A stretch of 64,000 bases of DNA, taken from contig OZ244881.1 in assembly GCA_965221305.1 (NCBI GenBank), positions 3,542,091-3,606,090 on the forward strand, given 5' to 3'. The notes under the pieces were generated by a model. That model did not search any database, had not been told where the DNA came from, and saw only the letters and a list, made by a program, of their open reading frames with translations. How positions within the stretch are numbered: position 1 is the first letter of the stretch; the number at the start of each line of letters is the position of its first letter. A program made the position numbers and the translations under genes. Shown piece after piece: positions 24,252 to 42,395 of this stretch. This DNA is from Vicinamibacterales bacterium (lineage in GTDB: Bacteria; Acidobacteriota; Vicinamibacteria; Vicinamibacterales; UBA8438).

Positions 24252-24953
24252 ATGAAGTTGAAGTCTTGGGTGGCCTGGGGCGCGGCGGCGGGCAGCGCCG
24301 CCGTCGTCCTCGCGCCGCTCGCCTATCGCGTCGGCGCGCCGCTGGGGCTGGCCTTTCTGCTGCTCGCCGGCGGCTTCCTCGCGGCCGCCGTCTGCGGACT
24401 TCTCCTCGTGCTGCGGATGGTGCGGCGGACGGGGCTGCGCGACCGCGAGGCCGGGGCCGTCCTCGCCGCCGCCGTCGTCGTGGGCGCCTTCCCGATCGCG
24501 GCGCTGCTCTCGGGCGGCGGCGCCCCGCCCATCCACGACATCACCACCGACACCGACGACCCGCCTGCGTTCGTCGCCGCGGTCCCGCTGAACGCGCCGG
24601 GCCGCACCGACTACGACCCGGCCGTGGGCGATCAGCAGCGGGCCGCCTATCCCGACCTCGCGCCGGCGATGCTAACGCTGGCGCCGGCCGCCGCGTTCGA
24701 CCGGGCCCTCGCGGTGGTCGACGAGATGGGCTGGGAGATGCTTGCCGCTGACGCCGGTGAGCTCCGTATCGAGGCGACGGACCGCTCGTTCTGGTTCGGG
24801 TTCGCCGACGACGTCGTCGTCCGCGTCGAACCCGACGGCGAGGCCGGCAGCCGCGTCGACGTCCGCTCGCTGTCCCGCGTCGGCGGCGGTGACCTCGGCG
24901 TCAACGCCCGCCGCGTGCGCGCGTTCGTCGACGCGCTGAGCGAGCCGCGGTGA
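24252..24953 (+). CDS. DUF1499 domain-containing membrane protein
   Basis: Internal ATG of track ORF 23679..24953. Two or three TM helices are followed by PPIHDITTDTDDPPAF..DRSFWFGFADDVVVRV..RSLSRVGGGDLGVNARRVRAF, which I recall as the DUF1499 signature. Confidence 0.7.
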   Translation: MKLKSWVAWGAAAGSAAVVLAPLAYRVGAPLGLAFLLLAGGFLAAAVCGLLLVLRMVRRTGLRDREAGAVLAAAVVVGAFPIAALLSGGGAPPIHDITTDTDDPPAFVAAVPLNAPGRTDYDPAVGDQQRAAYPDLAPAMLTLAPAAAFDRALAVVDEMGWEMLAADAGELRIEATDRSFWFGFADDVVVRVEPDGEAGSRVDVRSLSRVGGGDLGVNARRVRAFVDALSEPR

Positions 24954-26301: not shown

Positions 26302-26697
26302 TTACGCGCCGTGGACTGGAGGCGGTTCAGTTTCGAGTGCCAGCTCCGCATCAAGACCAAGCTGAACCGCGTGGTCTACCGTTCCACCCTGGTCCGGGCC
26401 TTCAACCAGCGGGCCGGCAAGCGCCGCCGCGTCATCAACCAGCGCGAGTACCGCTTCCTGGATTTCCTCCTGAAGGAAACCGAGCCCGTCGATCCCTTTG
26501 CCGAGGAGCCTTCGTTGAAGATCGCGTACTCGGAACTTCGCCAGGCGCCGTACGTCCGAGGCGTGTACCGCAACGTCAAGCCCCGCACGTTCCATCGCGA
26601 GCTGACGAGGCTGGCCGAAATGGGGTTCATCAGGTTCCTGGTCCGGCAGCCGGAGCCCACCATCGAGATCGATTTCGGGGCAATCGGCAAGTACTGA
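26263..26697 (+). CDS. Hypothetical protein with probable C-terminal winged-helix (possible gene remnant)
   Basis: 144 aa with high GC3, so probably real coding sequence. KPRTFHRELTRLAEMGFIRF resembles the wHTH at the C-terminus of Fic-type proteins (weak, from memory). No recognisable N-terminal domain. Confidence 0.5.
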   Translation: MNGAMKGVMNGAMLRAVDWRRFSFECQLRIKTKLNRVVYRSTLVRAFNQRAGKRRRVINQREYRFLDFLLKETEPVDPFAEEPSLKIAYSELRQAPYVRGVYRNVKPRTFHRELTRLAEMGFIRFLVRQPEPTIEIDFGAIGKY

Positions 26698-26960: not shown

Positions 26961-29723
26961 TCAACCGCGAAGACCGAACTGCACATCGAGCAGATCGCGG
27001 TTGAGCTCGACGGTCTCGGACGATTCGTCGACCGACAGCACGGCGTGGCCGTCGACGTTCAGCACCCGGCGCAAGGCGGAGACGATGCCGCCGAGCCGGA
27101 ACAGTGGGACGCCGAGGCTCTCGGCCAGGGCGCGACCCGTGAGCTTGCCGCCGCGGGCGTCGAGCGCGGTCAGGATGACTCGGATGCGCTCGTCGGGTAG
27201 CGCCGTCCCCGCCGCCTGCCTGCGTTGCTCGGCGAACAGATCCGCTTCGAAGAGGCGGTCGATCCACGTTGCTGCCGTGCGCGACGGCTCGGGTTCCAGA
27301 TCCGCGAACAGGTTCCCCGTCTCCCCCCGGGGCGTCGGGCGGCGCGCCGGCGCCCGCGTTCGGGCTTCGTCCGCCCCGGCGCTCGCGGGGGCGGCCGTCC
27401 CATCCCGCGCCAGCGTTGCGGATGCGGGCGGCGCGTCTGCCCCGGCCCGCCGTCGCCACCAAGCTGGTTCGTCCGGCCCGGCTTCGCGCCAGCCGGCGAG
27501 CTGCGAGGTCGTCTCCGGCAGCGCGAAGATGCCGAGCGGCAGCACTACCTCCTGCGGCGAGGCGCCCCCGTGGTAGCCGTTCTTCTTCATGCCGAAGCGG
27601 ACGCGTTCGCTCCATGGCGCCAGCAGGCGACCGCCTTCGGCCACGACGCGCGGACCCTGCAGCAGCACTTCGTCGTCGGCGGGTTCCCCGCTGGCCGGGC
27701 GCCAACGCTCCGCGCTCTCGGCGATGTCGCGCAGCGCCGTTCCACGCTCCAGCACGTGGCCATGGTCACTCGCGAGCACCACGGCGCGGCCGCAGGAGCG
27801 ACAGGCTTCGAGCAACTCCTCCAAAGGGTGGATGTGCTGCACGGTCCAGGGGAAGCGCACTTGGTCCCCCTTCGCAAGGTGGTCATCGACCGCGTTGATC
27901 ACCACGCCCACGACGCGGCGGTCGGGGTCGGCGATGGCCTCGGCCACACGCGGGGAGACGCCGGCCACGCCGGTCTCGCGCAGGTCTCCCTTGTGGAAGA
28001 GCACCGGTGGTGCGCCGGCCGCGCAGGTCGAGCGCAGGCCGGCGTGTTTGGAGAAGCCGTCCTTCTCCTTCGACGCGTTTCCCGACGTGACCGCGCCGCA
28101 TAACAGGCTCGTCCGCGACACTTCCGTCACCGTGGGCAGGGCGGCGACGACCACGGGACGCTCCGGCGCGTCCTCCGCTACCAGCTCGATCCATCCACGC
28201 CACACCAGATCGTGTTCGAGCTCTCGGAAGACCGCCATGCTCATCGCGTCGACGACCAGGAACAGCACCGGCTGCACGCGGGCGAGGGGTGTGACGCACC
28301 GGTCGAGGACCGCCTCGACGCCGAGCAGGCTCCGCTCGTGCGGTCCCGAACCCGGCCAGTCGGCCAGTTGCCTGCCGAATTCCAGATTCTCTTCTTGGCG
28401 CGCTTCGTCAGCCCGCTCCGCCAGGGTCGCGTAGGCCTCGGCGACGACCGGTGATGGGTCGCCGTCCCAGAGCCGCGCGCGAGCCAAGTCGACGAAGCCA
28501 CCCTCGCACCGATAGGCGCGCACGGCGTTGCCGAAAGACCGCCGGTTTTCGCGGCCGCCGCTCCTCACCGCGAGCCAGCCGGACAGTCGCAGGGCCATCC
28601 GGACGCCGTCGGCGCGACGCCGTTCGCCTGCGGCGAGCGCGTGGTCGAGCACGCGACCGGCGGCGTCGCGCAGCTCGCCCGGGAGCTCGCGCGCATCGCC
28701 TGCGACGAACGCGGTCAGCTCTCTCGCGAAACCGGCGAGGCGCTGATCGAGGCCCATCCGCAGAATCTTGCTGCGGCCGGCGAGACTCTCGGCGCCGAGC
28801 TTGCGGAGCAGGTCGTCCGCATCGGTGAGCACCGCCTCGATCTCGTCGCGCGGTACCCCCGCCGCGGATCGAGACAGCCTGCGCCGGACCACCTGTTCCG
28901 CAGCGTCGGTCCACGCGCGGGCGAGGGCTTCGTCGAGGTCGTCGAGTTCGAGCAGCGCCTCGAGCTTGCCAAGAGATCTGGCCGCCCGGTCATCGCCCCC
29001 GCCGCCCTCGTCGAACAGGACCCGCGCGACGAGGCCGACGGAGACGGCCCGGCGCCCGTGCCGGCCGGCGCACGCCAGAATCGCCCGCGCCGCGGGTCCC
29101 GCGCTGTGCCCAGCGGCGATCACCAAACCGTCGCGCACGGCTTCAGACCGGGTGGCCAGACGCTGCACCGGGTCGTCGTCCAGCGCCCACGCGAGCAGCG
29201 TCTCGGGGTCGCGCTCGCCACGCGGAATACCCGTGAGGCCCTCGAACAGCCGGCGCCAAGCCGTCTCGGCATCCAGAAAACCGCTCGGCGCCGGGGGGTA
29301 ACCGGCCTCCGGCTCCGCGTCGAGGAGCGCCCGCGCCGCCCACTCGTGACGTTCGACAAGGCGCGGGTCGACGAAATGGGCCTTGAACCGTTCCTTCACA
29401 AGCTGCCACGCGTCGATCGAGAACAGCCTGCGGTGGGCGAGCCGCGCGGACAGATCCGCGCCGAGCTGGGGATCCGTCAGATCGGTCAACACCACGATCG
29501 GCGGCCCAGCGGCGGGCAGGTCGACGAGGCGTTCGCGCAACGCCAGCACCGAGCGGCTGCGGACGACCGGGAGTTCCTCGTCGCCGATGCGGAGCGCGGC
29601 CGGCGCCGGGGCGGCCTCATCGAGGACCGGCACGGAGATTCCGATGACCCGTGCGTCCGGGTACCGTTCGCGGATCGACTTTACCTGGGCGTGTATCTGC
29701 GCCGACGATGGGACGACGGTCAT
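26961..29723 (-). CDS. pglZ: BREX/Pgl alkaline-phosphatase-superfamily protein PglZ
   Basis: ATG at 29723 overlaps the pglY stop (ATGA). PglZ-type motifs are present: LFLVVDAMS, LPTVTEVSRTSLLCG, VINAVDDHL and VLASDHGHV. It is the last gene of the pglWXYZ order. Confidence 0.9.
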   Translation of the reverse strand: MTVVPSSAQIHAQVKSIRERYPDARVIGISVPVLDEAAPAPAALRIGDEELPVVRSRSVLALRERLVDLPAAGPPIVVLTDLTDPQLGADLSARLAHRRLFSIDAWQLVKERFKAHFVDPRLVERHEWAARALLDAEPEAGYPPAPSGFLDAETAWRRLFEGLTGIPRGERDPETLLAWALDDDPVQRLATRSEAVRDGLVIAAGHSAGPAARAILACAGRHGRRAVSVGLVARVLFDEGGGGDDRAARSLGKLEALLELDDLDEALARAWTDAAEQVVRRRLSRSAAGVPRDEIEAVLTDADDLLRKLGAESLAGRSKILRMGLDQRLAGFARELTAFVAGDARELPGELRDAAGRVLDHALAAGERRRADGVRMALRLSGWLAVRSGGRENRRSFGNAVRAYRCEGGFVDLARARLWDGDPSPVVAEAYATLAERADEARQEENLEFGRQLADWPGSGPHERSLLGVEAVLDRCVTPLARVQPVLFLVVDAMSMAVFRELEHDLVWRGWIELVAEDAPERPVVVAALPTVTEVSRTSLLCGAVTSGNASKEKDGFSKHAGLRSTCAAGAPPVLFHKGDLRETGVAGVSPRVAEAIADPDRRVVGVVINAVDDHLAKGDQVRFPWTVQHIHPLEELLEACRSCGRAVVLASDHGHVLERGTALRDIAESAERWRPASGEPADDEVLLQGPRVVAEGGRLLAPWSERVRFGMKKNGYHGGASPQEVVLPLGIFALPETTSQLAGWREAGPDEPAWWRRRAGADAPPASATLARDGTAAPASAGADEARTRAPARRPTPRGETGNLFADLEPEPSRTAATWIDRLFEADLFAEQRRQAAGTALPDERIRVILTALDARGGKLTGRALAESLGVPLFRLGGIVSALRRVLNVDGHAVLSVDESSETVELNRDLLDVQFGLRG

Positions 29724-32700
29724 GGGCCGTCCTTCGCGTCGCGCAGCAGCTTCCAGGTGATCTCCATTCGCGCGCCCGGCTGCTTGCGCAGCAGGTCCTC
29801 CAGCTCCGCTGCGAGTTCGCTCAGCTGTCGGCAATCCAGGTCGCGGCGCGACCCCTCGGGCGGGATGGCGTCGCCGCCCAGGTCGGTTACCTCGCGTACA
29901 GTGGCCCCACCACTGCCGGTTCCTTGGCCGGCCGTCGGCCGATGCGGCGCTGGGGGCGCCGGCGAGCGCGCCAGCAGTTTGGCGGCCCGGCCGACAAGAT
30001 CGGACAGTCGGGGGGCCAGCGCCACGGCGTACTCGTCGGCGGCCAGCGCCGCCGCCAACTCGCGGCGAACGCGCTGCGCGTCGTCAGCGCGATCGTCCTT
30101 CAATTCGGCGAGCGGGGCGAAGATCTGCCAATGCGTGCGCTCCAGCACGTCCGCGAGCTCTCCCGCCTTGGCGATGCTCGTCCGCATCGCCTCCAGCGAG
30201 GTCACCGGCTCCAACGCTGCGAGCTTCTCGACCCGCACCCGGCCGTGGAGACCCGCGAGAGACTGCACGAGGGCGCCGCTCGCGCGGGCGGTGCGGAGTC
30301 GGTTGGCGGTCTTCGCGTCGATGGAGACGTCCGCTCCAACGGCAGCGAGTCGTTCGATCAGTGCGTCGCAGGCAGCGCTTTGCTTCGTCGCCGTCTCGCC
30401 GAGCTGTTCCGCGAGGTCGCTCACGTTGCTCGCGTTGCGCAACGGCGACCCCGTCAGCCCGAACAGCCGCTTGGCCCGCTCGACGGCGGCGGTCCACTCG
30501 TCCGCGGACGGCAGCGCCTCTTCGCGCAGCTCGACGTCATCCGGCAGGTCGTCGAGCTTCGCCGGCCACGAAGCCCCGTGCCGCCGGAACGCGAGGTTGG
30601 CCTGATCCGCGTAGACGAGGATGACGAGGTTCGCGGCGGCGTTCGGGAGCCCCATGCGCTGCGGCTCGTCCACGGCCTCGCGGAGCCTGCCGACGGTCAG
30701 TGGCTTTTCCAGCCGCTCGAAGTGGCTGAACCAGTGCCGGCCGACCACGAAGTGGGTCTCGCCCATCTCGCCGAGCCGCAGCGGGGCGGCGATCTGCATC
30801 ATCGCCGGGCGGAGCGGCTTGTCGATGGCGACGCGTCCCTCCGGTTCCTGCACGGCGCGCGACACCTGCTCGTGCACGCGGCGCAGCGCCGCCGCTCCTA
30901 TCGGGGCACCGAAGTCGGGGTGCGCCGGGAACTGGCTCGCACACATCTGCTCGAACAGGTTCGCGAGCGCCTCCCGCAGATTCGCTCGTGCCGGGGGGCG
31001 GGGCTCGAATCTCGGATCGAGGGACTGGAAGTGCTCTGCCGGCGGGAGCGACTCGTCGACCGACCCGGGTACGGGACTCTCCACGCCGTAGGCGCCCTCC
31101 AGGTGCTGGACCAGCCGCTGCCGGAGCTGGCTCTGCTGGTTCCGCATGAGCTCACGGGCGGACGTCTGCTCGGCCGGCGAGAGATGCGCCGCGAATTCGC
31201 GCAACCGCTCGCCGGCCAGGACATAGTCGATACGCACCAGCGTCCCGAGATCCTTCTGCGCAGACGTGCTCAGGAAGGACGGCAACCAGACCAGCGTCCG
31301 CGCCCCGGCATCACGCCCACGAAACTCCTTGAGGCGTGCGAGGTCATCGGCCGGCGTATGCCCCGGATCGTCGAAGGGGAAGTCGATGACTACCTTGCGT
31401 TCGTCCCCCCGCGTCGTCAACGACTCGTCGGGCAACTCCCGTACGTTGGCGAAGATCACCTCGAAGCGGCGCCGCGTGCCCCGCCACGTCGTCTCGTGGT
31501 AGAGAACGAGTTCGTCGCGATCCTCGATGCCGAGCGCGTCGAACAGGACCCTCCGGATCAGGCGGCGCCGGTTGCCGGCGTTGTCGTGCCGGCTGGCGTC
31601 GGCGAGGATGCTCTCGGTGTCTACGGCCGAGAGCTGAATGGCGATGATCGGATCGGCCGGGTCGTCACCAATCCGGACCTCCCCGATCTCGGCTGCCCAG
31701 GCGCGACAGCGCCGCAGCACTTCCTGCCCCTCGCGCCCCTCGATCGGCGTACGTATGGACCCGTGATTGAGCGCCGCGAGCCGCGCCGCGTTCAGATTCT
31801 TGAGCGCGTCGACCTCGGGGGTCAGGGCCGACAGCAGCAGCGTCTTGGCTAACCGATCGTCCGCACGGAGGGCGCGGGCCGCCCCGTCGTCCTTCGGTCG
31901 CGCCGCCGCCGCCGTCTTCGAGATCCCGCGCTCGTTCTCGATGAGCGGGAGGAGTTTCCGGCGGTAGAGGTTCCGCGCGTTCTCGAAGTGGTGGCGTGCA
32001 CTCTCGGTGAACGGCTCGTCGCCCTCGGCCAGCGCGTCGAAGAGGTCGCCGACCGGTACGATTTCGCCCAGCTCGAGCGTCTCGCGCCCGTCGACGAGGA
32101 TCTGGAGCATCACCCTCAGCGCCGTCCGTTCGCGTTGGAGGAGTGAGGAGACCGCGACCAGGGTCTCGACCAGGGCCGGACTGAAGGGGTAGACCTTGCG
32201 GAACGCGGCGGTGTCGGCGCGCGGGGTGAGCAGTGTCTCGAAGACCTCCCGGCGCACTCTCTCGGTCTGCGCGTAGGCGTCGTCGATCTCCCGTCGCGCC
32301 GCCTCGTTCCGCGGCCGCAGCAGGCGGCGCGCCGCTATGTCGGGCAGGTTCCGGTCCTCCAGCGTGATGCGCTCGAAGCGGGCCTCCCACCACTGCAGCA
32401 CGTCCGCGAAGCCGAGCTGCAGCGCGCCCGTCACCTGTTCACCCACGAGTTCGCGCAGGTCGCGCTGGCGCGCGACGAAGCTGACGATCGGGATCGCTCG
32501 CCCGGCCGTCTCCGCCTCGACGAGCTTCGAGACCTTCGGGCCCTCCTTGTTGAGGAACTGGAGATCGGCGGCGTGAGTGGCGAGCCAGAGGATCAGCTCG
32601 TCGAGAAAGAGCACCAGGGCGTCGTAACCCAGGTCGTGCGCGTGCCGGGCCACCACCGCCAGGCCGTCGTCCAGCGGGACGAATGCCTCTTCGCTTCCTC

Positions 32701-33409
32701 GCATCACGTCGCGGTAGCTGCTGAAGAACGAGCCGAGCAGCGCCGCGACCAGCCGGATCCGCTCTTCAGCTACGGCGGGGGCGTCGAGCGCGGCCTCGAA
32801 GCTCGCGGCGTCCCACTGCGTTGACAGATTGCCCCAGCCGGCGGCGGCTCCTGCTGCGCTCGCGGCAGTCTCGTTCAGGCGGGCGAAGAACGTCTCGTCG
32901 CCGACTTCCTTCCGCAGCCTCCGGGCGTCCTCGAACAGCCCGGCGCTGCGGTACACTCCCGGTGCGGGTGCGTCGGGATGCAGCTCGGCGACGCGCGCCG
33001 CGTAGCCCCCGAGCACCGCCGCTTCCAGGCTCGGTTTCCCGATCATGTGATAGGGAACCAGCAGGAAGCGCCGATCGGCGAGCCAGTCGTCGTGCCGCGT
33101 GACGACGCCTTCCAGGCCTGCGGTGGCGCGGGCCTCCGCCTCCTGCTGCAGCAGGAGGTGGAGTACCGCCATGAAGTGGCTCTTGCCGCTGCCGAAGCTC
33201 CCGTGCAGGTAGGCCGCCTTGCTCGATCCGCTCTCCACCGCGGTCTTGATCAGACCGAGGGCGCGGTCGAAAGCGCCGGCGAGCTGCGGCGTCACGACGT
33301 AGGTCCGCAGCGTCTCTGCGGGCTTCGCCACGCCCTCGGCAAGCCGCAGGACGAAGTCGTCGCGGTGCACCCGCTCGGGGATGTCGATCAGGTCGCGGAG
33401 CGGCGTCAT
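29720..33409 (-). CDS. pglY: BREX/Pgl P-loop ATPase PglY
   Basis: ATG at 33409 overlaps the stop of the NTase-HEPN ORF (ATGA). Walker A is GSFGSGKSHF and Walker B-like is LVLFLDELILW. About 1229 aa. The upstream 131 codons of the track ORF are R/G-rich and overlap the HEPN gene. Confidence 0.85.
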   Translation of the reverse strand: MTPLRDLIDIPERVHRDDFVLRLAEGVAKPAETLRTYVVTPQLAGAFDRALGLIKTAVESGSSKAAYLHGSFGSGKSHFMAVLHLLLQQEAEARATAGLEGVVTRHDDWLADRRFLLVPYHMIGKPSLEAAVLGGYAARVAELHPDAPAPGVYRSAGLFEDARRLRKEVGDETFFARLNETAASAAGAAAGWGNLSTQWDAASFEAALDAPAVAEERIRLVAALLGSFFSSYRDVMRGSEEAFVPLDDGLAVVARHAHDLGYDALVLFLDELILWLATHAADLQFLNKEGPKVSKLVEAETAGRAIPIVSFVARQRDLRELVGEQVTGALQLGFADVLQWWEARFERITLEDRNLPDIAARRLLRPRNEAARREIDDAYAQTERVRREVFETLLTPRADTAAFRKVYPFSPALVETLVAVSSLLQRERTALRVMLQILVDGRETLELGEIVPVGDLFDALAEGDEPFTESARHHFENARNLYRRKLLPLIENERGISKTAAAARPKDDGAARALRADDRLAKTLLLSALTPEVDALKNLNAARLAALNHGSIRTPIEGREGQEVLRRCRAWAAEIGEVRIGDDPADPIIAIQLSAVDTESILADASRHDNAGNRRRLIRRVLFDALGIEDRDELVLYHETTWRGTRRRFEVIFANVRELPDESLTTRGDERKVVIDFPFDDPGHTPADDLARLKEFRGRDAGARTLVWLPSFLSTSAQKDLGTLVRIDYVLAGERLREFAAHLSPAEQTSARELMRNQQSQLRQRLVQHLEGAYGVESPVPGSVDESLPPAEHFQSLDPRFEPRPPARANLREALANLFEQMCASQFPAHPDFGAPIGAAALRRVHEQVSRAVQEPEGRVAIDKPLRPAMMQIAAPLRLGEMGETHFVVGRHWFSHFERLEKPLTVGRLREAVDEPQRMGLPNAAANLVILVYADQANLAFRRHGASWPAKLDDLPDDVELREEALPSADEWTAAVERAKRLFGLTGSPLRNASNVSDLAEQLGETATKQSAACDALIERLAAVGADVSIDAKTANRLRTARASGALVQSLAGLHGRVRVEKLAALEPVTSLEAMRTSIAKAGELADVLERTHWQIFAPLAELKDDRADDAQRVRRELAAALAADEYAVALAPRLSDLVGRAAKLLARSPAPPAPHRPTAGQGTGSGGATVREVTDLGGDAIPPEGSRRDLDCRQLSELAAELEDLLRKQPGARMEITWKLLRDAKDGP

Positions 33410-34293
33410 GTGGGGTCCGGCGCTGCGGCCGGCAGGAGCGACGCGACACGCCCGACCGCCCAACCGACGACGGTTGCTGCATTCGCCATGGCCTGCTCGT
33501 ATTCCGCCATCGTTGTCGGTTCCTGCTCGTCGCTGACATCCGGGTACCGTCCACCGTCGCCATAGAGCGTCAGCGCCGCCCCCTGCCGCACGTCGTCGGG
33601 AATCACCTCGCCGACCTGTTCCGCCCGGTCGAGCAGACGACCGATGTCGTGCACATATGGAAACGGTTCGCCGTGCGCGATGATGACGGCCTTGACGGCC
33701 TTTTCGGCTCCGTAGTGGGCCTCCGAGCACAACAACCGGAGGTTCAGTCCTGGTTCGTGCCTTGCGGCGATCTTCAGGTGATCTTGCGCTTCCGTAATCC
33801 ACAGTCGAGCGGCATCCGCTTCGAGCGCGCGGCGCGGGTTCATGGCAGCGCTACTCCCCTGGAGAGGAACCGGCGCCGCCGAACCGTCAGGCTCGATCCG
33901 TTTCGGTGGTGAGGGCGGCCCGGGCGAGCTTCCCCGGCCCCGGAGCGCCGATTGACCTGCCTGTTTCGATGGCTCTTCATGGATCGTCCTGCCCTCCCGC
34001 AGCGCCGGCGCGATGACCAGCCAGTGCGAATCGCGGTGCCTGACGAGATCCTCGGGCCAGACCACCACCACATCGACAGCGGGTCGCGGCCGGGGCAGAC
34101 CGAGGTAGATGCGGGCCGCCGTCTTCCTCCGATGACACTTGTCCTTGACGACAAGCAGGTCGACGTCACTCGACGACGTCATCTCCCCCCGGGCGGCGGA
34201 ACCGAACAGGATGATCTTCTCCGGCGCCACCGCGTCAACGATGCTCTCGACGATGCGTTCAAGGACGCCGTTCGGCAGTGCTCGATCCATCAT
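33406..34293 (-). CDS. Fused nucleotidyltransferase (MNT-like) - HEPN domain protein
   Basis: A single 295-aa ORF. The N-terminal part carries the NTase signature GSAARGEMTSSSDVDLLVV. A P/S/G-rich linker follows. The C-terminal part is HEPN-like: AEKAVKAVIIAHGEPFPYVHDIGRLLD ... LYGDGGRYP. An internal ATG at ~33843 could also express HEPN alone. Confidence 0.8.
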   Translation of the reverse strand: MMDRALPNGVLERIVESIVDAVAPEKIILFGSAARGEMTSSSDVDLLVVKDKCHRRKTAARIYLGLPRPRPAVDVVVVWPEDLVRHRDSHWLVIAPALREGRTIHEEPSKQAGQSALRGRGSSPGPPSPPKRIEPDGSAAPVPLQGSSAAMNPRRALEADAARLWITEAQDHLKIAARHEPGLNLRLLCSEAHYGAEKAVKAVIIAHGEPFPYVHDIGRLLDRAEQVGEVIPDDVRQGAALTLYGDGGRYPDVSDEQEPTTMAEYEQAMANAATVVGWAVGRVASLLPAAAPDPT

Positions 34294-34350
34294 CGCGATT
34301 ATGCCGCCTTGGCAGGCGCGTCGACAATCCCCGCCGAAACGCCGGCCGGA

Positions 34351-37300
34351 TCACGTGGCCCTTCCGCGGCGGCCGCGCTTTGCCGCACCGCCCGGCGGCG
34401 CCCAGCCCCGGAGCGACTCACGGGTCAGCGAGAGCGACCGCGCCTCGTCGTCGATGAACGCCTCGAAGTAGTCGCCCATCCCCACGTCGAACTCGGGGTC
34501 GGGCGCATTGTGGTACTGCCGTACCCACGGCAGCAGCTCCAGCAAGGCCGCCAGGAGGGGCGCCAGCCGCTCGGCCGTCCAGCCCTCCTGCTCCCGCATC
34601 CGGTTATAGTACCCGGCAACGGCCCGGCTTTGCGCCAGCGCGTCCCAGCCCGCCCAGGCGACGACCAGGGAAGGGTCGGCGTCGCGCTCGCAGCCCGGCA
34701 GACTCACGAAGCGCTCCTTCGGCACGTCGAGCTTGCCCCGCAGGCGCCACCAGTGGCTCTTGCGGAAGTCGGCCGACGCATAGCGCGGCGGGCCGGGGAC
34801 CGGGCCCACCTCCTCCGCCTTGAGTGCCACCGCTGCTTCCGCGGTCAGGCGCTCAGGGTCCCCCGCGGGCAGGGTGACCCGTGCGTCGATGGCGTCCTCC
34901 CTCCGCTGCAACGCCCAGGTGCGCTCCCAGGCGGCGCGCTTGCGGAGCCCGGACGGCCTGTAGCGCAACACCGGGAGCAGCGGGACGCTCTCGTCGTCGA
35001 TCAGTCGGGCGACCAGCTTCGCAACATCGAAGTCGGCGCGCCCGGCATACAGCGCCGCCACCTGCTGGAACTCGGCGTCGTCCCGCACGCGGTCGGCCAG
35101 CGCCGCGGTGGTCGTGAGGCGCCGCTCCGACCAGAGCGCGGGCGCTTCGAGTCGGTCGAGCAACCAACCCCGCAGCGCCCGTTCCTGCTGCGCCTCCCAC
35201 GGCTCGTCGTTCCAGCGGCGCTTGTACTCGGGCCGCTCGATCAGGGCGACGTTGGCGTTTCGCTCGATGGTCTCGATGCGCCGCCGGACGAGTGCGCGGT
35301 AGGCGGCCGGCCAGTGCGCCGGGATCTCGGTGATCGGCGTCGAGCCGTGGCGTTCGAACCACTTCGTCTCGATCTCGCCGGCCGCCATCTTTCGCGCGAG
35401 GACGATCTCGAAGGCACGCTCGCCGAGGCGGACAGCGGGCACGTCGGTGCTCTTCGCGGAAGGCACGCAGAGCGCGCTATCGGTCACGCCGTAGAGCCCG
35501 TAGCAGCGCCAGTCGAGTTCTTCCTGGAGGGCGATCATCTGTTCGCGAAGCTCACCGCATCGAGCGCGCGCCGTGTCCAGGTCAGCGGCTGAAGGCGTAC
35601 TACGTTCGGCAATTGAGGCTGGAAGGGACTGAGCCCTGTCGGCTGCGGCGGAGTCAAGTATTCGTGCGAATTCGAGTGGCGTGTCGCTGGGTATCGGACA
35701 ACGGTGGAGTTTCGTGCCATCGAACTCGTAGAACTGTTCCCATTCCTCGGTCGCCAAGCCGCCACCAATCCCCCCGCCACCCTTGTTGTGAAGGGCCTGT
35801 TTCATCCAGAAACAAGCCGTCGAACTATTGAGTAAGCCCAGCAGTTCCAGATGGTCGTCCTCGGTGGCGTCTGCGGGAAGCTTGATCACCGGTGCTGTTC
35901 GCTTGAAGACCTTGCCTCCGCGGTCGAGCACGAAGTGATTGTGCGTTGTAACGAAGGCAAAAGTAATGGAGAGCGGATTTCGAAATCGTTCACGAAAGAA
36001 CATAGAGTACTCATACCATGTCAGTCCGCGTTCGATCTGCGATTGTCCATAAGCAATACGTTGAACAAGTCGAGATCGCCAGGGCCACAGAGACTTTAGT
36101 ACCGCTGGGTCCGCGATTGTCTCCAGGGTTTGGGAATCGTATGGCCAAATCGCACCCACCGATTCACAGATGGTCCAGTCACGAACATCCTCGCCCGCCG
36201 TGAGCGGACGAATCTGATCCGCTCCGATGCTCCGACGCTTGGCAACTCGCGTTCCGAGGCGGAATGCTTCATCCTCGCGCGTAACCGCTCCGAAGCCTAT
36301 CTCCGTGGCCATATCGCCGAGCGTCTTTGGTGCCCACTGTGCAAGGTGCTCCTTCAGTTCTGCAGCTCCCCCCCCGCCGACGCTCCAGGGATGCGTGTGG
36401 AACCGTTCTCTCTGCACATCCGACGCGCTCACGAACTTGCTCTGTGATCCAGGATAGTCGACCTGTTCGATGATCGCCGACCAGACAAGTCCACGCGCTG
36501 GATTCTCCGGTGTCGTCGGCTCACCATGGATGCCCATCACTGTGCGCACGTTCCTGTCGACTGGCCGGCGGTGTCGTCCGAAGAGGATCACCGTGGGTGT
36601 CCCGTGGCCGGGGATGTAGGCGCCGGAGGTGTCCACGACGTGGGTCAGGTCCCAGCGCGGGACAAACGTTTCGATTAGACATTTGCCGAACTCTCTCTTC
36701 ATGAACGAGTTGGCGGTGATCATCCCAACGAACCCGGCCGGCTCCGTGGAGCCGGCCGGGGAGACGTGGGCGAGGTCGAAGAGACGCTCGGTGAACGGCA
36801 CCGCCAGCGAGTACTGCCGGTAGCAGGACTTGAAACGCCTGCGGTACTCGTCGTTCACTGCCTTGTCCTTGGCGGTGATGTATGGCGGGTTGCCGACCAC
36901 CGCGTGGTAGCGGCGGCCGAGGATGACCCGCAGTGCGGAGGCGTCCTCCGTGCGGTAGACGTGACCCAGCGGGTCGCGTTCGGGATCGAGGTACTCCTGC
37001 CGCGCACCGGCTGTCCCGGCACGCGGGCCGTGGAGCAGGGCGTCGCCGGTCGCCACGTGAATCTCGAACGCGGGTGCGTCGGCGAGGCGCTGCACGCCGG
37101 CCGCATGGAGGGCCGCGACGCACAGGCGGAAGCGGGCTATCGCGGTCGCGAACGGGTTCAGGTCGACGCCGGCCACTTGCCGGAGAACACGGCTCGCCCG
37201 GTTGCGAGCGTTCGTGCCGGGCTCGTGCCGCGCCCAGAGCGCGTCCAGTCTTCGGAAGGCGCCGAGCAGGAAGTGTCCGGAGCCGCAGGCGGGGTCGATC

Positions 37301-38016
37301 AGGCGCACGTCGCGGAAACCGAACTCCTCGATGGCGGGATCGAGTGTGCGGTCGAGGATGAACTCCTCCACGAACGCGGGCGTCTGGAGCAGCGCGTACC
37401 GTCGGCGGGCGCTGTCGGAGAGGTCCTGATAGAGGTCGCCGAGAAAGCGCGTGTCCCAGGCCGTGTCGGTGAAGTCGTGCGCGAGGGCGCCGGAATCGGG
37501 GTCTATGCGTTGCCACAGGCCGAGCAGCCGGCCCGCGGCGTCACCCGAGGGAGCGCGAAACTGCTGGCCCGGCGGTTCGAGCGACCAGATGGGATTGTGG
37601 GCTTCGTCGAAGATGCGGTCGGCGACGGGCAGCGCGGCCACCTTGCGAAACACGTGGAGCAGGTAGTCGCGGTCGCTCTCTTTGGGGTTCGCCCGGAAGT
37701 AGAGGGTGTGCTCGTCGAGCGCCCGCCGGCGCCGGTCGCCGGGACCCGACAACCGCGGTGGGTCGATGAGGGCGTTGTCTTCGAGAAACCGCACGAAGAC
37801 GCAGCCGAGAATCCAGGCTACGGCGACCTGGGTCAGGTGCTCGTCGCGCCAGGAATCGTACGGCTCGGCGGTGCGTTCGTGCGCGCGCGCCTCGTTGTGC
37901 ATGCGTCGGAGGTGAACATCCAGCCGCGGCTCCTCGCCGCAACACGCCCGCAGGTCGTCCTCCAGGTCCGCCCGCAGACGCTTCAGGTCGGCGAGCAGGC
38001 GGTCGCTGTCGATCAC
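34351..38016 (-). CDS. pglX: BREX/Pgl N6-adenine DNA methyltransferase PglX
   Basis: SAM motif I is IDPACGSGHFLL and motif IV is VVGNPPYI (nt ~36881-36892). About 1221 aa. The proposed GTG start at 38016 overlaps the pglW stop (GTGA). The track start at 38088 is an alternative. Confidence 0.9.
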   Translation of the reverse strand: MIDSDRLLADLKRLRADLEDDLRACCGEEPRLDVHLRRMHNEARAHERTAEPYDSWRDEHLTQVAVAWILGCVFVRFLEDNALIDPPRLSGPGDRRRRALDEHTLYFRANPKESDRDYLLHVFRKVAALPVADRIFDEAHNPIWSLEPPGQQFRAPSGDAAGRLLGLWQRIDPDSGALAHDFTDTAWDTRFLGDLYQDLSDSARRRYALLQTPAFVEEFILDRTLDPAIEEFGFRDVRLIDPACGSGHFLLGAFRRLDALWARHEPGTNARNRASRVLRQVAGVDLNPFATAIARFRLCVAALHAAGVQRLADAPAFEIHVATGDALLHGPRAGTAGARQEYLDPERDPLGHVYRTEDASALRVILGRRYHAVVGNPPYITAKDKAVNDEYRRRFKSCYRQYSLAVPFTERLFDLAHVSPAGSTEPAGFVGMITANSFMKREFGKCLIETFVPRWDLTHVVDTSGAYIPGHGTPTVILFGRHRRPVDRNVRTVMGIHGEPTTPENPARGLVWSAIIEQVDYPGSQSKFVSASDVQRERFHTHPWSVGGGGAAELKEHLAQWAPKTLGDMATEIGFGAVTREDEAFRLGTRVAKRRSIGADQIRPLTAGEDVRDWTICESVGAIWPYDSQTLETIADPAVLKSLWPWRSRLVQRIAYGQSQIERGLTWYEYSMFFRERFRNPLSITFAFVTTHNHFVLDRGGKVFKRTAPVIKLPADATEDDHLELLGLLNSSTACFWMKQALHNKGGGGIGGGLATEEWEQFYEFDGTKLHRCPIPSDTPLEFARILDSAAADRAQSLPASIAERSTPSAADLDTARARCGELREQMIALQEELDWRCYGLYGVTDSALCVPSAKSTDVPAVRLGERAFEIVLARKMAAGEIETKWFERHGSTPITEIPAHWPAAYRALVRRRIETIERNANVALIERPEYKRRWNDEPWEAQQERALRGWLLDRLEAPALWSERRLTTTAALADRVRDDAEFQQVAALYAGRADFDVAKLVARLIDDESVPLLPVLRYRPSGLRKRAAWERTWALQRREDAIDARVTLPAGDPERLTAEAAVALKAEEVGPVPGPPRYASADFRKSHWWRLRGKLDVPKERFVSLPGCERDADPSLVVAWAGWDALAQSRAVAGYYNRMREQEGWTAERLAPLLAALLELLPWVRQYHNAPDPEFDVGMGDYFEAFIDDEARSLSLTRESLRGWAPPGGAAKRGRRGRAT

Positions 38017-41000
38017 GCCGTGGCCACTCCCGACGGCGGCGCCGCCGGGCCGTTGGCGGCGAGCCACGTCGGGGGAATGCGAGCCCACTGCGCGGCCGTG
38101 AACACGGGGACGGGTGCGCCATCGACCATGGGGCGCGACTCCTGTGCATCGGACGGAACGAGCAGCCAGACGCCGGGCGGCCCGTCCGGTCCTCCCGCAG
38201 CATCCCGGAGGTGGTCGAGCAGCGTCATCTGGTCGTAGCGGGCCAACAGACCCAGGTTCGTCAGCAGCAACGGGCGCGGTGCGGCGGCCAGCTCGGCCCG
38301 CACGCGCGGCAGGGCGCGGTGGCTGACCAGGCGCATGAGGGCGGCCCAGTCGGCGCTGCCGCGCGGCTCGTCGTCAGCGCGCAGAACGATACCCCAGTCC
38401 GCGCCAGCTTCGTCGGCGGCGGCCTTCATATGTCGGATCAGCAGCTCGTCGGCACTGCGGGCGTCGATGGCGAATTGCGAGACCAGGGCACGCTCCGCGT
38501 CCGCGAGCCGGCGGGGCGATACCGTCAGGGCGAGGAAAGCCTGGTTCTGCAAGGCGCGTCGCAACCGTTCGTCGAAGGCGTCGGTAGCATCCATTCCGGC
38601 GCCGCTTCCGGCGACCCGTGCGGCGCCATGGCTGGCACGGGTATGGCTCGTGGCCGAGCCGATGGTCACGAAGCCCCGGAGCGGCGAGCGGTATGTGCCT
38701 AGCCCGTCAGCGGTGTCCGGCGCCCAGACCAGCTCGCTGCCCGCGTCGTGGAGCAGGGTGTCGAGTTCGGGCCGGTCGGGCAGGGGCGCCGCTTCGGGGT
38801 AGCGCCCGGCCACGCGCCTACGGATTTCTTCGGGGGTGAGGTTGCGGGCGCCCGCGAGTGCCCCCAGTGCGAGCCGCAGCGCCCGGTCGGCCGGCATGCC
38901 GCGCGGATAGAGCTCGAGCCGACTGGAGAGCTCGGCGTTCTGGGAAACCGCGGCGGCGAGCGTGAGCAGCCGGTTCGGCGCCAGGGGCGCGATTCCGGAC
39001 GGGGTCGCGACGCCCTGCAGCTCGTCCAGGACCCGCGCCGGCGAGAGCAGCGGGTCGGCGGCCGACAGCCCGTCGGCGGTGCGGCCGAGGCGTTGGGCGA
39101 AGTCGGCGAGCCGTTGGCCATCGACGCGCAGCTCGCCGCGTTCGTCGCCCACGTCGCGCGCCAGGAGGGCGCCGGCGGGGCCGTCCAGGCGGCGCACGAT
39201 CCAGCGTGGCGCCGCGCGCTGGCGCTCGACCTCGACCGCGGCGCGAACGCACGCGTCGGCGTAGCGCGAACGAAGCGGATCTTCCTGCACCGACCCGCGG
39301 CGCGCCAAGAGCGCGGAGGCAAGCTCCGTCCGGGTCATCACGTTCCCGTATGCCGCGAGCATCTCGACGACGTCGTTTCGCAGACGGGTCAGCGCGCCGA
39401 GCTTGTTCCAGCGCCGCCGCGACCGCGCCGCCGCCTGGCTGACCGCCGTCGGGGTGACCCCGAGCCACCGGGCGACGTCGCTCTGGCTCGGCCAGGGCGC
39501 CGCGGGCGCGTCGTCGCGCAGCCCCAGCAGGGTCCCCGCCAAGTCCGCGTCGCGCCGCGACTGCGCGGTTCGGCCGGCGGGCAGAAGCAGCCGCCGAAGC
39601 TCGTCTACGCTCTCGTGCCCCGCGTCGGCGGTAACGTCGGCGTCGTCTCCGGTGGAGGAGACCTTCGGCGCGCCGGCCACCCCCGGGAACCGCTCGGCCA
39701 GCCGCCGGGCCAGATCGGTGATCTCGCGGCGGGTCCGAATGCCGACGCCGCGCATCCGGTTCACCTGGATGAGCGGGAACCGCAACAGGTCGCCAACGGA
39801 GTGGACGCCCATCCGCTCGACGGCGTTCATGGCGCGGGCGCTGAGCTTCATGGCCGCCAACAGCGTGTCGAGACGCGCCTGCTCGATGCCGCTGAACGTG
39901 GGCTCTGCGCCCACGGGGTCGGTGTCGGTCTCGGGCCGCGCCGCCGTCGCGAAGAGCCGCCGCCAAGCGCGCAGCATCTCGTCGGCGTTGTCGAAGCGCT
40001 GGCGGTAGTCGCGGCGCAGCGCCTTTTGGAAGAACGCGGTCAGGTCTTCGCGGACGGCTGGCTCGAAGGCGTCGGCGTCGACGGTGGCTTCGCACTCGAG
40101 GACCGCGGGCTCACTCTGCCCGTCGCCCCAACACGGCAGCGATCCAGCCGCCATCTGGTGCAGCGTGACGGCCGCCGCGAACCGTTCCGCGTGCGTGTCC
40201 CAGCGCGGCGGCTTGCGCGTCCGGAGGAACGGGTCGAGGTAGTGGCGCGTGCCCGCCAGGACGTTCTCGGCCGGTGTATGCGCCAACGAGAAGTCGAAGA
40301 GCACGAGATGGAGCTGGTTGCCAATCTTGGCGGTTCCCAGGTTCTCGGGCTTGATGTCGCGGTGCGGAATGCCCTTCTGCTCCAGCCAGTCGATGGTGGC
40401 CAGCAGGTCTTCGCCGAACCGCTCGAGCAGCTCCAGGTGCAGGCGGCCCTCGTCGCGCAGGCGGTCCGCGAGCGTGCAGTCGCCGGCGCGGGCCATGAGC
40501 AGCCCGACGCGTTCGCGGCCCGCGCCGTGGCGGAACGTCAGCTCGTCGTGGAGCTCGACGATGTACTGATGCCGCAGGCGGCGCATGACGTCCGCCTCGG
40601 CACGCAGGCGGTCGTTGTGGTCGGGAGACAGCGCCACCTTGAGCACATGCTCCCGCCCGTCGCGTTCGACGAGGAGGGCCACCGCCGTCGAGCCCTTGCC
40701 GAGCCGCCGCTTCATGACAAGGCCGTGGCCGAGATCTTCTTCGGGGCGGGCCTCGATCGGGTCATGTCGGCGACCCTCGTCGGGCCGGGTCAGCTCTTCC
40801 TCGACGCTTCCGAGCTCGTTCAGGAACTCGCCGACCGACCCGAGCCGCGTCGTCACTTCGGGATGAGTGGCGTACTGCACGAGAAGCTGAAGGCTCTCGC
40901 ACGCGCCGTCGAGGTCGGAGGATAGCTGCAGCCCCTGCTCCTTCAGGAGCCGCTCGGTCATGGCGGCGAGACCCGTCGCCGGCGGGCGGCCGGAGAAGAG

Positions 41001-42272
41001 GTGGTACGCGATGGCGCCGACCGAGAACACGTCGATCTGCTCGCCTGCCGCGCCGCGCTCGGTCACCGCCTCGGGCGCCATGTAGACCCAGGCGGCCTCT
41101 TCGACGAACGGGTCGAGGCGGCTCGCCCCCGTCGTGGCCGGCCCGGGCGTCCCGGTGTCGGCCGCGTGGCGTGCCCCGGTCTGCCAGTTGAAGATCTGGA
41201 CGCGCGGCTGGGCGGCCTCGGGGTCGAAGACGAGGATGCTCTGAGGCGACAACGCCCGGTGGACAAGGTGCTTCGCATGGGCGAAGCGCACGGCTTCCGC
41301 AACTTGGCGGAGGAGATGCAGCCGGGTGTCGACGTCGAGGCGCGTGCCGTGCTCGGCGAGCCAGTGGTCGAAGCGCTGCGAGTCTTCCCGGTGCTCGAAG
41401 ACGAGCGCCGGCCCGCGGACGTGCTCGGTGTACGCCTTGGCCGCGAGGATGCCGTCGTGGCGCACATCGCTCAGGATCTGGTACTCGCGCTGGGCCGCCC
41501 GTTGCAGCGCCGCCCGTTCGTCGTCCGACGCGTCTGGGGGAATCGCGTAGATTCGGACCCGCGCGTGCTCGCCCTCGATCGCCGCGTGACGCGCTGTCCA
41601 GTCCTGGTAGTTCGGCCCTTCGAAGAGGAGTGCGTCGAGCCGGTAGTCGCCCACCCGGTGCTTGCCCTGCGACGGGCGGATGCCCGCTTCCTGCATGGCC
41701 CGGCTGACAGCCTTGGCCATCGGCCGATCGATACGCGCGCGGTGCGGCGTCCCGGCGCTGTGCCGGGTGAGGGCGGCAACGATGCCAGGGCGCTCGTTCC
41801 GCCCCTTGCCTTCGTCACGGCAGTGGACGTGGTTGCGCAGGTCGTCCGTGAGCCGGCAGTCGACGTCCTCGTGCGACAGGAAGACCTGGGCTTCCAGGAA
41901 AGGGCTCGCCGCCTTCCGCAGCGCCGGCTGACGGCGCAGGAGCGAAACGAGCTTCTTCGCCTTCCGGTTCGCGAGCAGCAGCGGGTTGTCGACCGTCTGC
42001 GGGCGCCCGTCGCCCCGCCAGACCCACGTGCCCTGGTCGCCCTCCACGGTGCCGGGGCGGCTCTTGATCTCGACGAGGTAGAAGCCCTTCGGCGTCAGCG
42101 CGAGCAGGTCGACTTCGTTGATCGAGCCGTCGTCGGCGATGAACTCGAAGTTCGCCCAGGCGCGGTACGGCTCGTGGTCGGGCAGCCGGTCGCGCACGAA
42201 CGCCAGCGCGTCCCGCTCCCAGGGGAACGCCGAGTCGGTGACCGCCTGCCAGCGGGGCGAAGTTGCTTCCAT
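38013..42272 (-). CDS. pglW: BREX/Pgl serine/threonine kinase PglW (NERD, degenerate kinase, canonical kinase, HhH/HTH, C-terminal region)
   Basis: N-terminal NERD-like segment (WERDALAFVRDRL..EVDLLALTPKGFYLVEIKS). The first kinase-like domain lacks the catalytic Asp (HRALSPQSIL). The second is canonical (LGKGSTAV, VLKV, HRDIKPEN, DFS). LSARAMNAVERMGVHSVGDLL is an alpha-CTD-like helix-hairpin-helix. Start taken at MEATSPRWQ. Confidence 0.9.
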   Translation of the reverse strand: MEATSPRWQAVTDSAFPWERDALAFVRDRLPDHEPYRAWANFEFIADDGSINEVDLLALTPKGFYLVEIKSRPGTVEGDQGTWVWRGDGRPQTVDNPLLLANRKAKKLVSLLRRQPALRKAASPFLEAQVFLSHEDVDCRLTDDLRNHVHCRDEGKGRNERPGIVAALTRHSAGTPHRARIDRPMAKAVSRAMQEAGIRPSQGKHRVGDYRLDALLFEGPNYQDWTARHAAIEGEHARVRIYAIPPDASDDERAALQRAAQREYQILSDVRHDGILAAKAYTEHVRGPALVFEHREDSQRFDHWLAEHGTRLDVDTRLHLLRQVAEAVRFAHAKHLVHRALSPQSILVFDPEAAQPRVQIFNWQTGARHAADTGTPGPATTGASRLDPFVEEAAWVYMAPEAVTERGAAGEQIDVFSVGAIAYHLFSGRPPATGLAAMTERLLKEQGLQLSSDLDGACESLQLLVQYATHPEVTTRLGSVGEFLNELGSVEEELTRPDEGRRHDPIEARPEEDLGHGLVMKRRLGKGSTAVALLVERDGREHVLKVALSPDHNDRLRAEADVMRRLRHQYIVELHDELTFRHGAGRERVGLLMARAGDCTLADRLRDEGRLHLELLERFGEDLLATIDWLEQKGIPHRDIKPENLGTAKIGNQLHLVLFDFSLAHTPAENVLAGTRHYLDPFLRTRKPPRWDTHAERFAAAVTLHQMAAGSLPCWGDGQSEPAVLECEATVDADAFEPAVREDLTAFFQKALRRDYRQRFDNADEMLRAWRRLFATAARPETDTDPVGAEPTFSGIEQARLDTLLAAMKLSARAMNAVERMGVHSVGDLLRFPLIQVNRMRGVGIRTRREITDLARRLAERFPGVAGAPKVSSTGDDADVTADAGHESVDELRRLLLPAGRTAQSRRDADLAGTLLGLRDDAPAAPWPSQSDVARWLGVTPTAVSQAAARSRRRWNKLGALTRLRNDVVEMLAAYGNVMTRTELASALLARRGSVQEDPLRSRYADACVRAAVEVERQRAAPRWIVRRLDGPAGALLARDVGDERGELRVDGQRLADFAQRLGRTADGLSAADPLLSPARVLDELQGVATPSGIAPLAPNRLLTLAAAVSQNAELSSRLELYPRGMPADRALRLALGALAGARNLTPEEIRRRVAGRYPEAAPLPDRPELDTLLHDAGSELVWAPDTADGLGTYRSPLRGFVTIGSATSHTRASHGAARVAGSGAGMDATDAFDERLRRALQNQAFLALTVSPRRLADAERALVSQFAIDARSADELLIRHMKAAADEAGADWGIVLRADDEPRGSADWAALMRLVSHRALPRVRAELAAAPRPLLLTNLGLLARYDQMTLLDHLRDAAGGPDGPPGVWLLVPSDAQESRPMVDGAPVPVFTAAQWARIPPTWLAANGPAAPPSGVATA

Positions 42273-42395
42273 GGCGTGGCGCACTCGCGGTGCCCCGAGC
42301 AGTCGCGGACCGCCCGGCACGCCCGAATCCTAGCCCGTCGAGCGGGCGGAGTCACCCACCATCGACAAGGCTGGCCTGCGAAAGCCTCATCACGC

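Follow-up and report, generated by a model that had tools for sequence, protein, structure and literature searches.

A fused nucleotidyltransferase-HEPN gene between pglX and pglY in a type 2 BREX locus of a Vicinamibacterales bacterium

The fused gene and its place in the BREX locus

The window analysed here, a 64,000-nucleotide (nt) stretch of a Vicinamibacterales genome (assembly GCA_965221305.1, contig OZ244881.1, positions 3,542,091 to 3,606,090) with a G+C content of about 70%, carries on its minus strand a type 2 bacteriophage exclusion (BREX) locus into which an additional gene is set. NCBIfam BREX-2 models and Pfam together give the gene row as pglW, pglX, a 295-residue open reading frame (ORF), pglY and pglZ, and this ORF unites a minimal nucleotidyltransferase (MNT) domain with a HEPN domain. 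The features of the gene and of its borders are as follows.

34298..34327, minus strand: promoter-like element TTGTCG-18 nt-CATAAT, ending 4 nt before the ATG of the fused gene, in the 57-nt spacer that separates it from pglX
33406..34293, minus strand: fused MNT-linker-HEPN ORF, 295 aa plus stop, ATG start, without internal stop
33970..34293, minus strand: MNT domain, aa 1-108 (Pfam PF01909/PF18765)
34159-34203, minus strand: GSx10DxD motif of the MNT domain
34072-34074, minus strand: third catalytic residue of the MNT domain, Asp74
33844..33969, minus strand: linker, rich in Pro, Ser and Gly and predicted to be disordered, part of a 137-nt segment missing in two-gene relatives
33409..33843, minus strand: HEPN domain, aa 151-295, of the classical PF05168 type (Pfam, and a profile match to TT1696/1ufb)
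33703-33705, 33649-33651, 33541-33549 and 33529-33531, minus strand: HEPN residues E197, H215, R249-Y250-P251 and D255, in that order
33406..33409, minus strand: ATGA overlap between the stop of the fused ORF (TGA, 33406-33408) and the start of pglY (ATG, 33407-33409)

Both domains are called by Pfam. At residues 12-105 the NTP_transf_2/Polbeta matches lie above the gathering score (E 1e-8 and 3e-8; PF01909 35.8 bits against a cut-off of 21, PF18765 34.1 bits against 26.9), which places this half of the protein among the minimal nucleotidyltransferases, and PF05168 matches residues 162-280 (E 7e-15; 55.6 bits against a cut-off of 22). The GSx10DxD motif is formed by G31-S32 and D43-V-D45, to which a third acidic residue, D74, is added; G31, S32, D43, D45 and D74 are invariant across 42 fused homologues, and the catalytic residues of the MNT domain are intact. 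Between the domains lies a linker of 43 residues (aa 108-150), 23 of them (53%) Pro, Ser or Gly. In the AlphaFold2 model residues 111-150 have a predicted local distance difference test score (pLDDT) of 47-60, whereas most of both domains reach 84-98; the protein as a whole has a mean pLDDT of 85 and a predicted template modelling score (pTM) of 0.78. The original prediction, made from the letters of the stretch, had placed an MNT and a HEPN domain in one 295-residue frame without a stop, physically between pglX and pglY and with its TGA overlapping the pglY ATG, and had pointed to GSx10DxD as the motif to look for; the ORF, the Pfam and NCBIfam calls, the ATGA and the invariant motif bear all of this out for a gene that lies on the minus strand.

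The core genes around it are recognisable over nearly their full length.

38013..42320, minus strand: pglW (NERD-kinase; Ser/Thr kinase), near full-length, NCBIfam 1598 bits (cut-off 990)
34351..38016, minus strand: pglX (adenine methyltransferase), near full-length, NCBIfam 1654 bits (cut-off 400), probable GTG start at 38016
29720..33409, minus strand: pglY, BREX-2 ATPase of 1229 aa (NF047891), with a start that fits the homologue consensus MTxIRDLIDIPERVH
26961..29723, minus strand: pglZ (phosphatase), near full-length, PglZ_2 805 bits (cut-off 200), probable ATG start at 29723

PglY aligns over residues 4-1221 with positions 3-1294 of NF047891 at 1061 bits, which is below the equivalog cut-off of 1700; sister BREX-2 loci have PglY proteins that match it at 84-85% identity. 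Overlapping stops and starts run through the row, as GTGA at the pglW/pglX junction and as ATGA at the pglY/pglZ junction. The ATGA overlap of the MNT-bearing cassette with pglY is kept in every related locus aligned (the window, L001, L002, L004, L005, L006 and L169).

The fusion is found well beyond this one assembly. The identical 295-aa protein is recorded for a 4.43-Mb contig, and homologues of the fused protein reach E 1e-150. The representative of a 90% cluster, a fused protein 83% identical to this product, stands for 32 members of 286 or 296 aa drawn from ENA, JGI and Logan assemblies, one 286-aa member of which is identical on 21 contigs, and four fused orthologues at 75-92% nucleotide identity keep the same frame with neither indel nor stop. 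Among the fused orthologues the ratio of nonsynonymous to synonymous substitution (dN/dS) is 0.1-0.25 for the MNT domain and 0.26-0.5 for the HEPN domain, values that indicate purifying selection on both. For the linker it is about 0.7 in most pairs (0.40-0.75; 1.86 in one very close pair), substitutions fall evenly on all three codon positions, and a coding signature in third-position G+C (GC3) was not found there; given these properties and the lack of indels, the linker behaves as a weakly constrained spacer whose frame is still kept. Searched by blastn against the window and 172 loci for an origin as a repeat, a miniature inverted-repeat transposable element or a local duplication, the linker matched orthologous linkers only. 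Annotated plasmids gave no match at E ≤1e-8 (tblastn against PLSDB).

A linker that evolves near neutrality and lacks a coding GC3 signature, in a protein whose close relatives are split, is what might be expected if a frameshift had falsely joined an ordinary MNT/HEPN pair or if the ORF were a dead read-through product. That explanation is effectively refuted and its probability negligible: the split loci differ by a 137-nt segment and not by a slip of 1-2 nt, the same fused frame recurs in independent assemblies at 75-85% nucleotide identity (L001, L002 and L168-L172, in the 32-member cluster), and the dN/dS of both domains is well under 1. The first two of these observations rule out a sequencing error as the source of the fusion. 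The stop or frameshift that the original prediction had named as fatal to its claim was likewise not borne out, the frame being the same in each of those assemblies.

Fused, split, deleted and orphaned forms of the cassette

The next-closest relatives of the fused protein, at about 70% identity, are HEPN-only proteins of 163 aa that start MNxRRALEA at the position of Met151 in the window protein. In two sister loci (L004 and L005) the order is pglW-pglX-MNT(111 aa)-HEPN(163 aa)-pglY-pglZ(-brxD-brxHI), with the MNT and HEPN genes overlapping by 23 nt in different frames. Aligned as DNA, fused and split forms are set apart by two length differences, a 137-nt segment (137 being 2 modulo 3) and a 54-nt C-terminal indel. 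Four short features of the fused gene bear upon this difference.

33976..33982, minus strand: CCATGAA direct repeat, first copy, at the end of the MNT domain (ORF nt 312)
33839..33845, minus strand: CCATGAA direct repeat, second copy, holding the internal ATG (ORF nt 449)
33841-33843, minus strand: internal ATG, Met151, orthologous to the start codon of the separate HEPN gene
33854..33859, minus strand: Shine-Dalgarno-like element GGGGAG, with a 10-nt spacer to the internal ATG

The two CCATGAA copies stand exactly 137 nt apart, the length of the indel, and the repeat brackets the segment in the window. A deletion between the copies would turn the fusion into exactly the overlapping two-gene form and an insertion would do the reverse; both fit the alignment. 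The internal ATG with its GGGGAG, which the original prediction had suggested might express HEPN alone, proves to be the conserved start of the 163-aa HEPN gene of the two sister loci, and a purine-rich leader stands at the same site in the fused loci L001 (GGGGGG) and L002 (GGGAGG). At window 33840-33980 (minus strand) the REGRT codons supply a strong GGGAGGGCAGGA, closely followed by the ATG of the first CCATGAA copy. This ATG, which is out of frame, opens a 46-codon alternative-frame ORF that crosses the linker, and the TGA of that ORF overlaps the internal HEPN ATG (CC-ATGA). Such an ATGA could allow termination-reinitiation at Met151.

A third state is seen in another Vicinamibacterales locus (L006, 9642-10004), where an intact 120-aa MNT ending ...YESASSRRRALDATDPT before its stop is ATGA-coupled to pglY and the HEPN is lost except for its first and last few codons ('RRALDA...DPT'). 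Loss of the toxin first is the usual order in which toxin-antitoxin loci decay. The pglX of this locus is broken by a transposase, and two extra small genes (one ribbon-helix-helix (RHH)-like, the other aspartyl-protease-like) lie upstream. The cassette is thus found within one lineage as a fused gene, as a split pair and with its toxin part deleted.

It is also found where the BREX genes around it have decayed. The island represented by L168-L172 (five places shown of the 21 contigs with the identical 286-aa product) occupies the same chromosomal site as that of the window, with a ModE-like HTH_17/TOBE gene on one side and adh_short on the other. In it pglW and pglX are gone, the fused gene is intact and pglY and pglZ are truncated wherever the contig reaches them; in L169 (7154-10250) a 364-aa N-terminal piece of pglY abuts a 399-aa C-terminal piece of pglZ. 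The cassette outlives the BREX genes around it. A further copy (L003), frameshifted and decayed, stands outside BREX altogether, in a housekeeping region beside an RHH gene, and carries the same promoter block. Promoter-like sites numbered 2, against 0.0 expected in shuffles, and the CATAAT block is invariant across 5 aligned loci; the GGCGGCATAAT block precedes the gene in L001, L002, L003 and L168-L172 regardless of which gene lies upstream. The cassette is a self-contained unit with its own conserved -10/-35-like element. Given that translation of pglY is coupled to it and that the promoter-like site lies upstream, the cassette probably supplies expression signals for pglYZ as well.

More distant relatives are scattered. 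A fused homologue 38% identical (P0037) occupies 6001-6768 of locus L086 (2488-12634). Its neighbours are an SNF2 helicase on one side and, on the other, a DUF1156 methyltransferase with whose start it overlaps, followed by a DUF499 ATPase; together they make up a BREX-related 'Hma'/type 1 BR system. Fragments of DUF499-type context recur in five short metagenome contigs (L093, L124, L127, L134 and L158), and another homologue is placed among small genes of unknown function. A metagenome scan with a fused-only alignment gave 80 loci, of which 68 hold split overlapping pairs and 3 a fused gene; the 22 longer ones have mixed neighbours, including radical SAM, ABC transporters, Cas1, PIN and IS200, a pattern resembling that of a mobile toxin-antitoxin family. 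MNT relatives are often fused to type I HsdS subunits (PF01420; P0072, P0081, P0094, P0097, P0109, P0110 and P0114-P0116), and others are fused to winged helix-turn-helix regulators. In the wider family split pairs prevail, but fusion is also frequent among distant relatives, where the linkers are unrelated and both domain orders occur. The profile search returned 374 cluster representatives at 50% identity with E ≤1e-30 and 8475 with E ≤1e-10; when the best 150 were tallied by hand, about a third proved to be MNT-then-HEPN fusions and about another 10 to be reverse-order fusions of 260-290 aa with HEPN N-terminal and MNT C-terminal (for example P0032 and P0262-P0269). Because fusions also exist in the reverse order, the domains have been joined more than once. 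That homologous fusions are common and unrelated to BREX, the finding which the original prediction had said would tell against it, is largely borne out.

How unusual the insert is among BREX-2 loci was seen from 80 species-level loci gathered by a PglY profile, in each of which pglX, pglY, MNT and HEPN were located; junction counts refer to the 60 loci in which both genes share a strand and pglX lies upstream.

pglX-pglY gap of ≤120 nt: 26 loci
pglX-pglY gap of 0.3-5 kb: 28 loci
pglX-pglY gap of >6 kb: 6 loci

This survey of pglX-pglY content, proposed with the original prediction, finds MNT/HEPN at only 2 of the 60 junctions (L006 and L016) and unrelated inserts at 34 of them. The ORFs in the gaps match Fic/SoFic, GmrSD, Uma2, AAA_21/AAA_15 (OLD-type ATPase) with DUF4276, Schlafen, ParA-like ATPases, reverse transcriptase and HNH, and because they are so assorted and unrelated the junction is a hotspot for accessory genes; this fits a survey of BREX 'backup effectors' (PMC12839542). 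The second MNT/HEPN case (L016, Magnetococcales, 2839-3530) is an unrelated pair in the opposite order, a 128-aa HEPN and then a 108-aa MNT at the same junction, and apparently an independent acquisition. In the nearest cassette-free Vicinamibacterales relative (L007, PglY 79% identical) pglX and pglY are 3 nt apart.

Could the gene nevertheless be an integrated component of BREX-2, either a regulator that gates PglY/PglZ (for example by balancing PglX toxicity) or a sensor that fires upon BREX inhibition? Such a role would accord with the coupling to pglY in all lineage loci, even where the HEPN is deleted, with a promoter-like element that would drive MNT-HEPN-pglY-pglZ as one unit, with the analogous coupled place of the L086 relative before the methylase of a DUF499/Hma system, and with the second, unrelated pair at the Magnetococcales junction; it is quite unlikely all the same, in view of the rarity of MNT/HEPN at junctions where pglX and pglY often simply abut, of the 3-nt gap in the cassette-free relative, and of a cassette that persists without pglW/pglX, beside truncated pglY/pglZ and away from BREX. 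The original prediction had held the module to be part of the BREX operon and not a neighbour. It does lie inside the gene string and is ATGA-coupled, but the integration was overstated, given its own promoter-like element, its intact state in decayed loci, the copy outside BREX and the scattered family.

HEPN kinship, active site and the readings of function

The profile matches mark the HEPN domain as a clear, classical member of PF05168 ('HEPN-T'), with E 1.9e-18 to TT1696/1ufb, 5e-14 to 1wol and 9e-12 to 1o3u, and a further match to sacsin (3o10); as a single-domain match, Foldseek gives TMt 0.78 to 1wol. The invariant R249-Y250-P251 aligns with the RYPDAH of TT1696, which makes R249 the Arg of the Rx4-6H ribonuclease (RNase) motif. 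E197 in helix 2 and H215 in an FPYxHD loop are kept by the wider family. Of the HEPN active-site residues, which the original prediction had also singled out, R249 and E197 are there, and the His of Rx4-6H is missing.

The explanation that we consider modestly probable is that an MNT/HEPN cassette of an ordinary toxin-antitoxin type, here in fused form, has settled at the head of the pglY-pglZ unit in one Vicinamibacterales lineage. A mobile, promoter-bearing cassette would have inserted ahead of pglY and taken over its coupled start. By analogy with type VII HepT/MntA and with FhepTA, a fused system described below, growth arrest would be the work of the HEPN domain, probably as a dimeric RNase, and the attached MNT would keep this domain off in cis by nucleotidylylation, by blocking dimerisation, or both; Tyr250, invariant beside the invariant Arg249, is the obvious candidate acceptor. 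The same analogies suggest that the toxin might be released by ATP depletion, by linker cleavage with loss of the MNT, or by an excess of HEPN made from the internal start. In biological terms the cassette could serve its own persistence by addiction, back BREX up by abortive infection, or do both.

Several observations weigh against this reading. The window sequence is RYPDVSD, with V, S and D at positions +4 to +6 from the Arg, and RNase activity cannot be assumed for the window protein because the canonical His of Rx4-6H is missing; the wider family, too, has no conserved His or Asp at +4 to +6 and keeps R249, E197 and H215. According to Anantharaman et al. (PMC3710099), HEPN domains fused to MNT are typically catalytically inactive. 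No DUF86/PF01934 match was found by Pfam in the fused protein, which is accordingly not a HepT, and with 27.8 bits against a cut-off of 60 for NF047752 it is not an MntA equivalog. PADLOC gave the MNT part only weak matches, to the candidate family PDC-S09. The best whole-chain Foldseek matches are enzymes (HalB, ANT(9), ANT(4'), AadA and KNTase) and not toxin-antitoxin complexes. Finally, persistence in decayed loci would also be expected of any independently useful gene.

Much of this evidence suits the main rival, which makes the gene a domesticated two-domain nucleotidyltransferase whose HEPN is a non-catalytic, substrate-binding lobe, as in the kanamycin and aminoglycoside nucleotidyltransferases or in HalB of Hailong; the enzyme might nucleotidylylate proteins, nucleic acids or small molecules, with a Pgl protein or some phage component among the candidate targets, or might produce a nucleotide signal. 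The missing His and the usual inactivity of MNT-fused HEPN domains would then be natural. The whole-chain Foldseek matches, which run from HalB (E 8e-6) through the aminoglycoside enzymes to LinB and DrrA, would also be accounted for, although their TM-scores are low (0.35-0.48, with a root-mean-square deviation of 8-13 Å). NCBIfam hidden Markov models do match HalB and ANT, but weakly and far under their cut-offs (HalB 26.4 against 190; ANT(9)-Ic 17.2 against 505; ANT(9) 15.2 against 340). Likewise, the pTM suggests a defined two-lobe arrangement in the AlphaFold2 model, whereas the long, disordered, near-neutral linker sets the protein apart from the compact enzymes. In the nearest relatives the two domains are encoded by distinct genes that overlap, MNT before HEPN as is typical of toxin-antitoxin pairs, L006 keeps the MNT alone, and an 80%-identical orthologue (P0002) carries a canonical Rx5H, RYPDVAH. 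On this balance we regard the enzyme explanation as possible but rather unlikely.

On a further, very unlikely reading the gene is a dual-product, CapRel-like, single-gene immune sensor wired into BREX-2. The full-length MNT-linker-HEPN protein would be the latent form, and HEPN alone would be made from the internal Shine-Dalgarno element and ATG or by termination-reinitiation after the 46-codon ORF. Once BREX is inhibited or overwhelmed, RNA cleavage would be set off either by the balance between these products or by a phage or host factor that cuts the linker, with the ATGA coupling tying pglYZ output to the same transcript. If so, the 137-nt indel with its flanking repeats would have let a single defence module switch, in the course of evolution, between two modes of regulation.

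Known systems and the surroundings of the locus

Among the closest known counterparts is the fused toxin-antitoxin FhepTA of the Shewanella prophage CP4So, in which the HEPN alone is toxic and the full-length protein is not, and in which a Tyr is oligoAMPylated intramolecularly (Yao et al., NAR 2026, PMC13000451). Both FhepTA and the window protein are single polypeptides with an N-terminal MNT (GSx10DxD) and a C-terminal HEPN, both have highly similar two-gene and fused forms in related genomes, and both occur in mobile or defence contexts. They differ in that the HEPN of FhepTA is of the HepT/DUF86 family with R-phi-xxxHxY, whereas that of the window is PF05168 with RYPDVSD; that the FhepTA linker consists of 3-8 hydrophobic residues essential for self-AMPylation, against 43 disordered, Pro/Ser/Gly-rich residues here; that FhepTA has neither an internal ribosome-binding site nor an internal ATG, of which the window keeps both; and that FhepTA is not embedded in BREX. 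Similarly, the type VII HepT/MntA pairs (Shewanella SO_3166/3165; Aphanizomenon HEPN/MNT, PDB 7ae9 and 7bxo) share the MNT-then-HEPN order, an intact MNT catalytic triad, a conserved Tyr beside the HEPN Arg motif and single-domain fold matches, but their HEPN belongs to another family, the MntA score of the window protein is under the cut-off, and HepT/MntA is a hetero-oligomer and not a fusion. The classical MNT-associated HEPN pairs of structural genomics (TT1696/1ufb with 1wot, ST0689/1wol and TM0613/1o3u) have the same HEPN family and the same RYP position, and differ at the motif, where TT1696 reads RYPDAH (Rx4H) while positions +5 and +6 of the window protein are Ser and Asp. HalB and the aminoglycoside and kanamycin nucleotidyltransferases, which give the best whole-chain Foldseek matches, share the two-lobe plan of a nucleotidyltransferase with a helical C-terminal domain; beyond the low TM-scores and model scores already given, they are compact and have neither a disordered linker nor an internal start.

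Parts of this picture are already published. Fusions of PF05168 HEPN domains to MNT, and their clustering with restriction-modification operons, were listed in 2013 (PMC3710099), where the HEPN genes found in Pgl operons are of different families (pEK499_p136 and RloC); a fused MNT-HEPN toxin-antitoxin system has been characterised (PMC13000451); and the 'backup effector' survey (NAR 2026, PMC12839542) reports within the core BREX string HEPN genes that are sometimes MNT-fused, and GmrSD, OLD-ATPase, Schlafen and similar genes of the kind seen at the junction. The original prediction knew of no described type 2 BREX variant with this insert, and to this extent it must be qualified: the mention of MNT-fused HEPN in BREX loci in that survey is generic, and an explicit listing of a type 2 pglX/pglY MNT-HEPN insert of this family was not found in its accessible text. 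What is new is the particular family and its position at the head of pglYZ in a type 2 system, the long disordered linker, the retained internal start and the within-lineage series of cassette states.

As it stands, the gene does not change what is known of BREX or of MNT-HEPN systems. Its interest lies in a single toxin-antitoxin-type cassette caught fused, split, toxin-deleted and orphaned by BREX decay, in a single lineage and at a single chromosomal site, and it further supports the view that add-on defence genes dock at the pglX-pglY junction of type 2 BREX. Should the PF05168-type fusion prove to work as a toxin-antitoxin or in abortive infection, the concept of FhepTA would reach into the HEPN family that is both the largest and the least understood.

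The remainder of the island can be described briefly. At the distal end of the BREX row, tblastn with the BrxD and BrxHI of L005 found neither brxD nor brxHI in the window. The sister loci L168, L169 and L005 carry brxD, a phosphoribosyltransferase gene and brxHI at the same site, and all three are missing here. The BREX-2 locus of the window keeps its four core genes and has lost its distal part. Downstream of pglZ there follow instead a Fic remnant (26350-26694, plus strand; the C-terminal 115 residues only) and then adh_short (25058-26068, minus strand), and just past this adh_short flank of the island lie genes for tRNA-Ser(GCT) and tRNA-Val(GAC) (20025-20118 and 24717-24810, plus strand). 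On the other side, about 3 kb beyond pglW and after modA/modB-like genes, stand an OLD/ABC-type ATPase gene (AAA_21/AAA_15; about 45610-46800, plus strand) and a DUF4276 protein gene (46806-47408, plus strand), which match the PADLOC candidate HEC-01A/B (E 9e-157 and 4e-64) and form a second candidate defence pair.

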